From assembly GCA_002784465.1 (NCBI GenBank), contig PFLE01000008.1:1-63705 (forward strand): DNA of 63,705 bases. Reading direction: 5' to 3'. Positions within the stretch are counted from its first letter, which is position 1. The number at the start of each line of letters is the position of its first letter. Positions 20,610 to 23,836 of this stretch are shown here, in pieces. This DNA is from Candidatus Shapirobacteria bacterium CG_4_10_14_0_8_um_filter_39_15 (GTDB lineage: Bacteria; Patescibacteriota; Microgenomatia; UM-FILTER-39-15). The position numbers were made by a program, and so were the translations under genes. The notes under the pieces are model-generated. The model was not told the DNA's origin, did no database searches, and saw only the letters and a program-made list of their open reading frames with translations.

Positions 20610-21417
20610 TAATTTTAGTCCCCCTAGGTAGCAATATCTAGGAAAAAACTGGCTATATCGGTGAAACTCCTTGTTGTTTCGGGTATTATTTGGTATTATG
20701 GAAACAATGAGGACAATACCGAGGGAAGTCGGTTATTTTGAGGGTAGACGATAGAGGTTAGAAGTTGGAATTTGAAGCCTGCCTGCCGGCAGGCAGGTTA
20801 GAAAATAGAAGAAAAATTGATAAAATAAAAATGTGATAAAAACATTTCGTGATTTAGAGGTATACACGGAGTCTTACCAGTTAATGTTAATTGTACATGA
20901 AGGAGTTAAAAAATTCCCTGTGTATGAAAGGACAGATTTGGCTCCGCAAATGAGAAGATGTTCGAAATCACCTCCGGCAAATATCGCCGAAGGTTGGGCG
21001 AAGAGAAATTTTGAAAAAGAATTCAAAAAACATTTAGGGACGGCAATTGGTTCCTGCAACGAAATGGAAGTTCACATTGAAACAGCACGAGATTTAGGTT
21101 ACTGGGATAAAGAATTTTGTCAATCTCTTCTTAAAAGATACCAAAATGTAGGAGGTAAATTAAATAACCTCCGAGAAAATTGGAAAACATACTAACTTCA
21201 ACTTTCTACCATCATAATCTAATTTCTAGTTTCTATTGTCTATCTTCAATTTAATCTGACCCCGTAGAGACTGTACGCCGGTCCCGAGCTTAGCTCGGGA
21301 ATGATACAGTCCGAACTATACAGTAATGTATAGATCTCTAAAGAAATTTAGAGGCGCCCCGCACCGTATGGTGCAGGGTTAGTATCCCGATTTGTGTCGG
21401 GAGAAAGTAACAAAATG
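20610..21417 (+). mobile_element. 16S intron 2, group I, at GGGAT|TAGAGACC (about E. coli 788/789)
   Basis: The 5' exon ends in U and the intron ends in G. Core GTAGAGACTGTACG ... GATACAGTCC. Confidence 0.8.
20833..21195 (+). CDS. four-helix-bundle protein (23S rRNA intervening-sequence protein / Avd-like family)
   Basis: LEVY...SYQL ... QMRRCSKSPPANIAEGWAKR ... GSCNEMEVHIETARDLGY pattern. Confidence 0.8.
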   Translation: MIKTFRDLEVYTESYQLMLIVHEGVKKFPVYERTDLAPQMRRCSKSPPANIAEGWAKRNFEKEFKKHLGTAIGSCNEMEVHIETARDLGYWDKEFCQSLLKRYQNVGGKLNNLRENWKTY

Positions 21418-21784
21418 TAGAGACCCCTGTAGTCCTAACTGTAAACGATGCTCGCTAGATGGCCCCGTCTGACGGGGTTGTCGTAAGCTAACGCGTTAAG
21501 CGAGCCGCCTGGGGAGTACGGCCGCAAGGCTAAAACTTAAAGGAATTGACGGGGAGGCGCACAACCAGGGGAGCGTGTGGTTTAATTCGAGACTAAACGA
21601 AGGACCTTACCTAGGTTTGACATGCTAGAAGTAGCTTCCGGAAACGGATAGTCACCCGTTAAGTCGGGGACTAGCACAGCTGCTGCATGGCTGTCGTCAG
21701 CTCGTGCCGTGAGGTGTCGGCTTTAGTGCCGGAACGAGCGCAACCCCTACTATCTGTTAAATATTCAGATAGGACAGCCCCGTC

Positions 21785-21914
21785 TCTTTTTCGCATCAGC
21801 TAACAGAATAAGATTTGAAATAAAGATTTATTTTGTTAGAAGATCGCGACGCTAGCCCGAATAGGGCTGGGCTATTCGCCCACGCGTCGCGGTATGAGAT
21901 TGGCGCGAAAAAGT
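21785..21914 (+). other. 130-nt expansion segment in the 16S (tip of the helix before GGAGGAAGG)
   Basis: Flanked by CCCCGTC / GACGGGG. Its ends are self-complementary (CTTTTTCGC / GCGAAAAAG). No intron core motifs. Confidence 0.7.
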
Positions 21915-22142
21915 GACGGGGAGGAAGGAGGGGACGACGTCAAGTCAGCACGGCGCTTATGTCTAGGGCAACACACACACTACAATGGATCGGACAACGA
22001 GTTGCGAGCGCGCAAGCGTAAGCTAATCTCTTAAACCGATCCTCAGTTGGGATTGCGGGCTGTAACTCGCCCGCATGAACCCGGACTTGGTAGTAATCGC
22101 GGGTCAGCAAACCGCGGTGAATACGTTCTCGCCTCTTGTACA

Positions 22143-23038
22143 AAATAAATGCGCTTGGCAGTTTAGAAAACTAAGTGGTGAAAATCCACTTTTATAGAGA
22201 AATCATACTTAGAAATTAGATTAAGGATATGATTTTTATATATCTGTCACAAATGTTGTGACAGCTATAGTTGCGGACAGTCTTGAGGGGTAACCCGAAG
22301 GATGAAGGGTCCTATATACAAAGAGCAGTCCTCTTTTCAAAAGGGCAATAACGATCTGATTATGTGTACAGCAGAGAAGTTATTTTAAAAACCCAGAGGA
22401 ATGTTTGAAAAAGTTTTTTAAATGACCCAAGGAGATCCTGTGTGCATCAGAACTATAATCGGCCACAGGAAGTCAGCTGAGTCCATAGTAAGTAAAACTT
22501 GACAGGTCTATAAATAGTATCTAAATTAGAGATAGACCCGAAGCTTTACCGAAGGGACGAACTATATGTTAAATCCTCATTATATTGTCGGATTTGTTGA
22601 TGGCGAAGGATGCTTTAGTGTGTCCATAAGCCGAAAACGATTTCGAATACCTGAGGTTAGACTCAAATTTGAAATTGAGCTTAAAGGGGATGACGAACCA
22701 ATTCTGAAAGAGATCTAAAAATTTCTAGGTTGCGGATCAATCTACCATTTGGAATATAAAAAATACAAATGGGGACCGCATGCGAAATTTATGGTTGGTT
22801 TACAGAAAGATCTTATTAATAAAATAATACCTTTCTTTAAAAAATATCCTCTTCAGGCAAAAAAGAGAAAACAATTTGAGTTTTTCTGTAAGGTCGAAAA
22901 CATGATTCTTAAAGGGGAACATAGAAATCTTGAAGGAATTGAGAAGATAAGATTAATGAGAGAAAAACAACATATAGACTCGCTGGATGCGCTAGACGCG
23001 CACGTCCAGTGGGGCGTGGAATAGTTCTTAACCATGAT
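22143..23038 (+). mobile_element. 16S intron 3, between TTGTACA and CACCGCCCGTC (about E. coli 1396/1397)
   Basis: Joining the flanks restores the universal TGTACACACCGCCCGTC. The intron class is uncertain (no terminal G). Confidence 0.65.
22566..23024 (+). pseudogene. LAGLIDADG homing endonuclease (single-motif type) with an in-frame TAA
   Basis: MLNPHYIVGFVDGEGCFSV...ILKEI, then a stop at 22716-22718, then KFLGCGSIYH... in the same frame. The ORF track shows only 22749..23024. Confidence 0.7.
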
Positions 23039-23127
23039 CACCGCCCGTCAAATGAGCAAAGTCGGGGGTGCCTGAAGCTCCTGCTTAGCAGGAATGAAGG
23101 TAAACTCGGCGATGAGCATTAAGTCGT

Positions 23128-23836
23128 AAACTTGTTGCGACCTGCAATCGTAAGAATGCAGGAAAATCTAACTGTATCGGTGAAGCCTAAATCCGCCAGC
23201 TGGCGGATACGGTAATACCGAGGGAAGCTTGTTTCGGTAAAACAGTTGAACAGTTAAACAGTAAGACAGTAATCAGTGTAACGGTAATATGTTAGACTTA
23301 GTTAATGGCAACTATTTGGAGTGTTAAGCAACTTAGGGTATATCAGCGGCCATTGAAACTTTTGCCGCAATTGTATGATCTTGCTTATTCACTTCCAGTG
23401 ATTCGCCAAAAATTAAGAAAACAGATCATTAATTGCGGGGAAGGAATAGCCCCGTTGATTGCGGAAGGATTTGCTAAAAGAAGAAATGAAGCGGAAGTAA
23501 AAAGATTCTTCGAAATGGCAATGGGAGAGAGTGATGAATTAGCTACTCACCTAGAGCAAGTCAAAATTCTGGCAAATCGGTTTAAGAGTGTTAGAGTTGA
23601 ATTGTGTCAAAAGTTAATTGAAGAATACACAATCGAATCAAAAGAACTCTATAACCTTATTAAAAATTGGAATAATCATCCAACAAAATGATTTACCGTT
23701 TTACTGACTACTGTTTTACTGCAATACTGTTTAACAGATTTACAGATTCATAGCCCCGTAGAGACTACACGTTGGCCCCAGCTCAGCTGGGTGAAGATAT
23801 AGTCCATGCCTCGATGAAAATCGAGGAACACCAATG
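23128..23836 (+). mobile_element. 16S intron 4, group I, at AAGTCGT|AACAAGG (about E. coli 1498/1499)
   Basis: The 5' exon ends in U and the intron ends in G. Core GTAGAGACTACACG ... GATATAGTCC. Confidence 0.8.
23305..23691 (+). CDS. four-helix-bundle protein (IVS-protein / Avd-like family)
   Basis: LRVYQRPLKL ... INCGEGIAPLIAEGFAKR ... GESDELATHLEQ pattern, inside 16S intron 4. Confidence 0.8.
   Translation: MATIWSVKQLRVYQRPLKLLPQLYDLAYSLPVIRQKLRKQIINCGEGIAPLIAEGFAKRRNEAEVKRFFEMAMGESDELATHLEQVKILANRFKSVRVELCQKLIEEYTIESKELYNLIKNWNNHPTK

Follow-up and report, generated by a model that had tools for sequence, protein, structure and literature searches.

Within the 63,705 nucleotides (nt) of Candidatus Shapirobacteria bacterium CG_4_10_14_0_8_um_filter_39_15 analysed here (contig PFLE01000008.1, positions 1 to 63,705; below, the window), two of the introns that split the 16S ribosomal RNA (rRNA) gene, introns 2 and 4, each contain a small gene for a four-helix-bundle protein that is wrapped in its own long inverted repeat. 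We regard it as likely that this hairpin cassette is an rRNA intervening sequence (IVS)-type element, bearing an open reading frame (ORF) and nested in the loop of the P6 stem (L6) of two paralogous group I introns, and just as likely that it is built in the order of a 5' arm of word repeats, a spacer of ~15-20 nt with a -10-like box, a gene of the PF05635 family, and a complementary 3' arm. In evolution, cassette and intron are separate units: with the same arms, the cassette is found in L6, in the loop L8, in rRNA helices themselves and, in the majority of cases, between protein genes. Because the wrapped gene is also found between ordinary genes in related bacteria, it can be considered a genetic element in its own right. 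The DNA sequencing runs that contain this region are groundwater and aquifer metagenomes.

An earlier note on this DNA, made from the letters alone, had placed both ORFs in the four-helix-bundle family known from 23S IVSs, and profile hidden Markov models bear this out: the protein of 120 amino acids (aa) in intron 2 scores 91.5 bits against PF05635 (cut-off 33.8) and 90.6 bits against TIGR02436 (cut-off 24), and the 128-aa protein of intron 4 exceeds the same cut-offs with 44.8 and 48.0 bits, respectively. The AlphaFold (AF2) monomer model of the 120-aa protein consists of four long helices (predicted local distance difference test score, pLDDT, 95.6), and its best structural matches are the IVS-family proteins 2gsc (template-modelling (TM) score 0.86-0.93) and 2rld (TM 0.74-0.84). 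With a ratio of non-synonymous to synonymous substitution rates (dN/dS) of 0.02-0.12, in intron-borne and free contexts alike, the bundle protein is under strong purifying selection. Neither ORF has a LAGLIDADG, GIY-YIG, HNH or His-Cys match in Pfam; LAGLIDADG matches are found instead in 16S introns 1 and 3 and in 23S intron B.

Introns 2 and 4 are confirmed as group I introns by a U·G pair in P1, a terminal G and a covarying P3-P8 core. In intron 2, GUCCC of the intron (20618-22) pairs with GGGAU of the 5' exon, which places U·G at the splice site, the final base is G21417 and the exons once joined read GGGAUUAGAGACCC; in intron 4, GCGAC (23137-41) pairs with GUCGU, again giving U·G, and the final base is G23836. 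Joining the exons across both introns restores conserved 16S sequence. When eight members of the intron family were trimmed of their cassettes and submitted to RNAalifold, P3, P4, P5, P6 and P8 came out in the order typical of group I introns. Compensatory changes are seen in 13 of the 30 core pairs; the pseudoknotted P7 was read by eye only. The Rfam model Intron_gpI (RF00028) scores intron 2 at 29.6 + 20.6 bits and intron 4 at 33.7 bits, all under the gathering score of 50, which could plausibly be caused by the insertion of ~500 nt; a cassette-less intron of the same family at another locus (L023) reaches 53.1 bits.

The two introns are paralogous ribozymes that hold their ORF at an equal structural position, between the core motifs ACCGAGGGAAG and CCCGTAGAGAC, which corresponds to L6. 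Within the window, one intron family shows four different contents of this loop, as it is empty in 23S intron A, filled by a LAGLIDADG_2 gene in intron B, occupied by an ORF-less hairpin in intron C, and occupied by a hairpin with a four-helix ORF in the 16S gene. The suggestion that the bundle genes sit in place of homing endonucleases is well founded in this respect, given that the LAGLIDADG_2 gene of intron B uses the very same L6. Translation of this gene begins 9 nt ahead of the ACCGTGGGAAG core motif, continues across that motif and ends in the joining segment J6/7 (CCCCGTAACGAC).

Both ORFs were also said to be bracketed by inverted word repeats and to sit at the tip of a long stem, and both statements hold. 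The arms of intron 4 (23234-23287 and 23693-23746) are 78% complementary over 54 nt without a gap, and those of intron 2 are 70-74% complementary in two offset segments of 27 nt (20735-20773 versus 21192-21247). Minimum-free-energy folds of the two whole introns form a long stem with the ORF at its tip (z values of -9.1 and -10.1 relative to shuffled sequences). The words are RRTAGAR heptamers in intron 2 and AACAGT/ATCAGT 8-mers in intron 4, and since C is scarce in the 5' arm and G in the 3' arm, neither arm is able to fold on itself. One side feature of the intron-2 cassette is a GC-rich perfect palindrome, CCTGCCTGCCGGCAGGCAGG, which breaks the AT-rich 5' arm at 20778-20797; the exact 20-mer recurs in two unrelated contigs (L021 948-967 and L078 185-204), one of them from a Planctomycetia bin.

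This architecture is shared by a large set of relatives. The 120-aa protein has more than 500 of them at 68-84% identity, nearly all 119-123 aa long with a few up to 142 aa, and the named sources place most in lineages of the Candidate Phyla Radiation (CPR). A scan with one genome per species gave 79 loci (loci are cited here as L with a number), and 61 non-redundant copies with at least 57% identity were analysed, including the window copy and loci from further relatives; the close relatives in this set, from CPR genomes, are 58-77% identical. In the free copies the purine-type arm ends ~15-23 nt ahead of the start codon and the complementary arm opens 1-12 nt past the stop, with the consensus termini TTGACGNTAGA ... 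TCTANCGTCAA. Pairing between upstream and downstream flanks exceeds that of composition-matched shuffles in most copies (z -4 to -16), and the same is true of more distant relatives, found in Planctomycetes, Phycisphaerae and Deltaproteobacteria, whose arms are made of different words (for example AAGGAAGT and AAGAGGC). Apart from length changes by gain or loss of words, the arms are mostly more conserved than third codon positions. Two word types coexist in several genomes, TAGA and AACAG in the window and in L051, TAGA and GAATCATGAAT in L031, L037 and L053; as the protein clades keep their distinct words inside one genome, the words follow the element and not the host.

The separation of cassette and intron is seen in their distribution. 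Only 13 of the 61 copies are rRNA-borne, at several 16S and 23S sites, and all 13 lie between one pair of core motifs, at distances of 83-115 nt upstream of the start codon and 64-78 nt downstream of the stop codon. Around the remaining 48, neither rRNA nor an intron core is present; these copies are located between protein genes, with the same arm architecture; in four Daviesbacteria genomes (L040, L046, L047, L049) the cassette is syntenic, downstream of one conserved gene end. Conversely, the introns also occur without the cassette. In a Berkelbacteria locus (L006), the 16S site of window intron 2 holds an intron with the same core and a P6 hairpin of 22 nt, and the site of window intron 4 holds a cassette of the 120-aa rather than the 128-aa type; cassette-less homologous introns are also present in L023, L044 and L054. 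Cassette and intron therefore occur independently, and ORF and flanks are not always inherited together with the intron. The earlier proposal of an independently mobile cassette stands as far as this independent presence and absence goes.

Identity between cassettes is in some cases confined to the segment enclosed by the ribozyme core. Two 23S introns of L023 share 94-100% identity in the block enclosed by the core motifs and no more than 16-40% beyond it, and window intron 4 is 87-100% identical to that of L087 over the cassette and adjoining core, at 41-69% identity outside this part, 55-69% in the outer intron, and with unrelated exons. These blocks fit gene conversion that would have used the conserved ribozyme core as homology. 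The relatives of the 128-aa protein are similarly spread, the site being L6 in L088 and L090 and L8 of a different intron in L091, whereas the copy of L089 stands free, and AACAG/ACGGT/ATCAG words accompany them in every case; in metagenome contigs, relatives of this protein were found at one locus only (L087). L088 also has a 122-aa family member directly in a 16S helix (~position 70-100), free of any intron and thus a classical IVS. Neighbour-joining places the intron-borne proteins in several groups scattered among free-standing ones, the intron-borne protein of L013 being 86% identical to the free one of L015 and that of L044 82% identical to the free one of L040. Frameshifts, stops or truncations affect about 10 of the 48 free copies versus none of the 13 intron-borne ones, a trend only (Fisher p = 0.07), to which assembly errors possibly contribute.

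Two further observations concern the surroundings of free cassettes. In L018, L027 and L061 the cassette stands between shared and mutually complementary flanks, CTTGCACTTTGGAACTAAGAGAA ... TTTGGTTTCAGAGAGCAAG (~2880-2910 and 3415-3445 in L018), just upstream of a Shine-Dalgarno-like sequence, and may be seated at the tip of a conserved leader hairpin; a search of these flanks against Rfam matched no family. In L001 (Curtissbacteria), a direct repeat of ~125 nt of host intergenic sequence brackets the free cassette (2755-2905 and 3415-3565; 82% mean column identity). It contains a terminator-like hairpin and a promoter-like stretch, and may have arisen as a long target duplication, or may be a regulatory unit that was already repeated beforehand.

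Hairpins with similar words also occur without an ORF. One is inside the 23S gene of the window, and nine further full copies nearly fill intergenic spacers between same-strand genes, at a density of about one per 5-6 kb (Table 1). ORF-less twins of the cassette are present in L026 and other loci, several other CPR loci combine cassettes of the TAGA type with nearby ORF-less hairpins of that type, and in L088 a second 16S helix holds an ORF-less hairpin with arms ~88% identical to those of the ORF-bearing cassette.

The spacer between the 5' arm and the gene has a recurrent geometry: a -10-like TAnnAT, often with TG in front, stops precisely 6 nt short of the start codon in 28 of the 61 copies, and 4-9 nt short of it in 39, compared with 13 ± 3.3 in shuffled sequences. 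A Shine-Dalgarno-like sequence is found in three. This arrangement suggests that the cassette has its own promoter and that the messenger RNA (mRNA) would be leaderless.

Table 1 Positions in the window of the bundle genes, their arms and hosts, and the related hairpins
Feature	Position	Strand	Remarks
16S rRNA gene	18998-23880 (approx.)	+	four introns and one 133-nt expansion; Rfam small-subunit matches, exon junctions read by hand
16S intron 1	19483-20338	+	LAGLIDADG_2 gene inside
16S intron 2	20610-21417	+	group I; site GGGAU|UAGAGACCC, ~E. coli position 788
Core motif ACCGAGGGAAG	20718-20728	+	P4'/5' side of P6; borders intron-2 cassette; partner CCCGTAGAGAC at 21261-21271
Intron-2 5' arm	20735-20812	+	tandem heptamers GGTAGAC GATAGAG GTTAGAA ...; C-poor
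-10-like TAAAAT, TG ahead	20821-20826	+	ends 6 nt before 120-aa start codon
Four-helix-bundle ORF, 120 aa	20833-21195	+	GTG start; PF05635/TIGR02436; intron 2
Intron-2 3' arm	21192-21250	+	complement words CTTCAAC TTTCTAC ...; G-poor
133-nt expansion of 16S gene	21778-21915
16S intron 4	23128-23836	+	group I; site AAGUCGU|AACAAGG, close to 16S 3' end
Intron-4 5' arm	23234-23287	+	tandem 8-mers AAACAGTT GAACAGTT AAACAGTA AGACAGTA ...
Four-helix-bundle ORF, 128 aa	23305-23691	+	intron 4; 31% identity to intron-2 protein
Intron-4 3' arm	23693-23746	+
ORF-less ATCAG/AACAG 8-mer hairpin	29686-29804	+	inside 23S gene
Nine further full copies, ~120 nt	6025-6141, 7024-7141, 37347-37463, 37918-38035, 41164-41288, 44576-44695, 53137-53251, 60144-60260, 62044-62158
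Partial copies of ATCAG/AACAG hairpin	8886-8957, 12179-12244
23S introns A-C	30575-32290		one group I family; 3' part of 23S gene
23S intron A	30612-30649	+	L6 empty; P6 = GTCCGGC-TTTG-CCGGAC
23S intron B LAGLIDADG_2 gene	30930-31523	+	fills L6; no word arms
23S intron C	~31894-32130	+	L6 filled by ORF-less hairpin of ACAGA/TCTGT word repeats
Free-standing divergent relative, 226 aa	39682-40362	-	TIGR02436 28.6 bits (passes), PF05635 32.2 bits (just under cut-off)
Free-standing relative with suffix domain, 183 aa	43367-43918	+	mainly TIGR04258 (four-helix-bundle suffix domain), 60 bits
Suffix-domain copy remnant	59560-59741	+	C-terminal part only, KKFVKEGGFRENLF; purine word repeats ahead at 59460-59520

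The count of five family members in 64 kb given in the earlier note is correct, and comprises two canonical members, two divergent ones and one C-terminal fragment, the DNA of which is 73% identical to 43836-43905. The divergent relatives differ in where the second arm lies. In the 226-aa gene, an upstream word arm at ~40400-40430 has its complement within the ORF, at 39850-39888, where it encodes LYRPLTILYPPL; in the 183-aa gene (region 43330-43760), the complement of the upstream arm is inside the ORF at 43700-43757 and encodes PTNLTNLSNWTNL. In both proteins the arm complement separates the N-terminal helices from the C-terminal suffix helix, as if the gene had translated its own 3' arm. 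The 3' end of the 183-aa gene overlaps tRNA-Ala(GGC) (43909-43980), and a weak family member of 191 aa in the Berkelbacteria locus (L006, 5619-6270) also adjoins a tRNA gene, so that this pairing of gene and tRNA may be conserved.

Other features of the neighbourhood are recorded here for completeness. Intron 3 of the 16S gene (~22141-23038) is inserted at ~E. coli position 1400; it gives a weak match to a group II domain (22450-22557, 27.9 bits) and contains a LAGLIDADG_1 gene that is broken by a stop at ~22717 into two pieces (22567-22717 and 22749-23024). It agrees with the LAGLIDADG-bearing group II-like insertions that have been reported for this site in CPR bacteria. The spacer between the 16S and 23S genes (24279-26899) contains tRNA-Ile and tRNA-Ala with three protein genes between them (24847-25176; 25251-25811, with an NYN domain; 25965-26528), which is unusual for an rRNA operon. 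A duplication of 78 nt, 86% identical, occupies 32720-32797 and 32863-32940, and its second copy spans the start of the 5S rRNA gene and the preceding 6 nt, the first copy being 143 nt upstream. Finally, a repeat of 92 nt (72% identical), made of GTACCACGAG-type words and their complement, is found at 33199-33290, the extreme 5' end of an ORF with S1 RNA-binding domains (33186-34361), and at 36230-36321, inside an ORF with AAA/KaiC, DnaB-like and Lon_C domain matches (35875-37296).

Several observations weigh against the interpretation as a nested IVS-type element, or limit how far it can be taken. The arms cross-pair between copies nearly as well as they pair with their own partner, which suggests that pairing derives largely from shared words and not from copy-specific compensation: the cognate pairing energy is -57.5 kcal/mol versus -49.7 for non-cognate arms, and although self-pairing is the stronger (p = 7e-7), the margin is small, so that the arms behave as largely interchangeable zippers. 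We dropped the idea that the stems are kept mainly by copy-specific compensatory change, as self-pairing beats non-self only modestly. The arms of intron-borne copies are stronger and more specific than those of free copies (p = 1e-4), which fits the need for a foldable ribozyme, but the 110-nt flanks used for intron-borne copies contain the base of P6, possibly inflating their pairing scores. The arms of intron 4 are collinear with the ORF-less family of the window and are the best non-member matches to its nhmmer profile, but the link is marginal (E = 0.048 and 1.4) and homology between them is suggestive only. The neighbour-joining tree of the 120-aa protein is poorly resolved. Most of the loci used for comparison are from metagenome bins, the taxon labels of which are unreliable, and at two of them (L009 and L087) the cassette-bearing intron has 16S on one flank and 23S on the other; these are probably assembly chimeras arising from near-identical cassettes at several rRNA sites. 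A pattern search bridging the L018, L027 and L061 flanks over a short gap in metagenome contigs found no pair of empty and filled intergenic sites. In a groundwater metatranscriptome (X25) reads cover exons only and none of the introns, and one junction fits the removal of intron 1; since exon depth is dominated by other organisms, these data do not speak to cleavage of the stem.

A different reading of the same material is that the hairpins serve the host in regulation, for example as terminators, insulators or RNA-processing sites, and that the protein is a domesticated binding factor with its gene inside its own binding site, nothing being mobile today. The ten full ORF-less hairpins in 64 kb, nine of which nearly fill same-strand spacers, would be expected on such a view, as would the very low dN/dS and the syntenic positions in the four Daviesbacteria genomes. 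We nevertheless consider it unlikely, because one genome has identical cassettes in unlike introns (L023), because a terminator would do harm in the rRNA helices and ribozyme loops in which insertions are seen, and because about 10 of the 48 free copies are disrupted and the tree mixes intron-borne with free copies.

One could also speculate that the protein is a maturase or mobility helper dedicated to the intron, having replaced a homing endonuclease, and that the arms are a mere extension of P6. The presence of all 13 rRNA-borne copies in one ribozyme family, none of them disrupted, points in this direction, and so does the fact that the host introns lack an endonuclease gene yet occupy many rRNA sites. 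This is, however, difficult to reconcile with the 48 of 61 close homologues that are free of introns and keep their arms, with the LAGLIDADG gene that fills the same L6 in the absence of such arms, and with the persistence of cassette-less introns of the family, and we regard it as quite improbable.

The earlier note had further related the proteins to Avd, the accessory protein of diversity-generating retroelements. Of this relation the four-helix topology and a similar size are left, and the likeness is generic: the Avd structure 4dwl ranks 13th against the 120-aa model, with a Foldseek E of 0.31 despite a probability of 0.99, TM 0.62-0.68 and 5% identity, behind 2gsc and 2rld. That the ORFs could be Avd-type accessory genes of such a retroelement, or relics of them, is hardly credible, as a reverse-transcriptase domain is present in none of the 20 largest ORFs of the window, no pair of template and variable repeats was found within its 64 kb, and no reverse transcriptase is among the called genes of the inspected loci; a retroelement at this locus was accordingly rejected for the window. 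Equally hard to believe is that the inverted repeats are a functionless by-product of AT-rich sequence, for although the arms are of low complexity and cross-pair between copies, their constant asymmetry (5' arm C-poor, 3' arm G-poor), their fixed spacing from start and stop codons, their pairing above composition-matched shuffles and their conservation, mostly above that of synonymous sites, all argue otherwise.

Returning to the nested IVS-type element, we infer from these patterns how the cassette moves and what its protein does. In the precursor rRNA, the arms would zip into a long helix that merely lengthens P6, the ribozyme core could then still fold and the intron splice, and the insertion would be harmless. 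Spread among introns would proceed by homologous recombination or gene conversion over the core motifs that flank L6 (ACCGWGGGAAG ... CCCGTANNGAC). Expression of the gene would start at an extended -10 promoter of its own and yield a leaderless mRNA, the excised intron being a possible second source. The protein, in turn, may recognise the word repeats of its own element, in keeping with a word type that tracks the protein clade even within one genome.

The closest known systems are the ORF-bearing 23S IVSs of Leptospira, Coxiella burnetii (S23p) and relatives in Xanthomonas (PMC4990558). They share the PF05635 family, with the pentameric 2gsc as the best structural match, and they are likewise insertions at the tip of a structured RNA helix in which complementary borders form a stable stem around the S23p-family ORF; their distribution is sporadic, suggesting horizontal spread (PMC4990558). 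A mobile-element origin was proposed for IVSs in the 1990s (reviewed in PMC4990558), and in one proposal of that time the ORF was needed for mobility. The window copies differ in that they sit in the P6 loop of a group I intron rather than at the tip of an rRNA helix, and in a 16S gene; because of this seat they would be removed along with the intron, and the rRNA would not have to be fragmented. The cassettes differ further in having arms made of tandem word repeats, and in that most relatives are outside rRNA genes.

In CPR bacteria, the co-occurrence of such ORFs with rRNA insertions is already on record, as it was tabulated by Tsurumaki et al. 2024 (PMC11270868), who list 22 23S_rRNA_IVP ORFs in CPR rRNA insertions, 18 in 16S and 4 in 23S, and cite an earlier CPR study for these protein families in rRNA insertions. 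Five of the 22 are in insertions with group I matches, and 15 of the 18 in 16S have no intron match, which could reflect either direct IVS-type insertions like that of L088 or the score penalty imposed by the insertion. That study concerns the same organisms and the same kind of split rRNA genes, and tabulates the ORFs as domains without further analysis; nesting in L6, hairpin arms, the predominance of free-standing copies, hairpins without an ORF and exchange of cassettes between introns are not described in it. In our literature search we likewise found no description of nesting in L6 or L8, of family-wide zipper arms of word repeats, of a free-standing majority, of ORF-less twins or of exchange across core motifs, and searches on TIGR02436, and on Avd together with the IVS protein, returned nothing relevant. 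Group I introns with homing endonuclease genes are similar in that the ORF is looped out of a peripheral stem, 23S intron B of the window using the same L6, and are different in that the bundle protein lacks a nuclease motif, and its ORF comes with a long stem of its own and also lives outside introns.

A more distant parallel is the REPIN-RAYT system (PMC3116915), in which a conserved gene is flanked by cognate hairpin repeats, many ORF-less copies are intergenic, and the repeat type follows the gene clade. RAYT, however, is a Y1 HUH transposase, whereas here the protein is a helical bundle of 120 aa with PF05635 as its only domain and no known catalytic residues; the repeats here are tandem words as opposed to one palindrome, and mobilisation by the bundle protein is purely conjectural. 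As the bundle protein has no known catalytic fold, we do not claim membership of that system. By analogy, one could tentatively suggest, as a doubtful possibility, that IVS/S23p bundle proteins make up, together with word-repeat hairpins, a widespread system of gene and repeat akin to REPIN-RAYT. The bundle protein, small and non-enzymatic, would bind its own family of hairpins as their cognate factor and maintain or propagate them, and these hairpins would colonise the hairpin tips of any transcript, be it in rRNA helices, ribozyme loops or intergenic spacers.

The rRNA IVSs and their S23p ORFs have been unexplained since the early 1990s. The present data show ORF and hairpin to be a portable unit that is mostly outside rRNA genes, nests in ribozymes and has ORF-less derivatives, and the old idea of IVS mobility now yields predictions, namely binding of the protein to its cognate arms, splicing that depends on the arms, and recombination across the core motifs. 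In practical terms, near-identical cassettes are a warning, as they probably cause chimeric rRNA assemblies in metagenome bins. The hairpins also offer a candidate identity for some of the ORF-less, non-intron rRNA insertions of CPR bacteria, and if the comparison with REPIN-RAYT were true, it would account for the origin of rRNA IVSs and of many unclassified rRNA insertions in these organisms.

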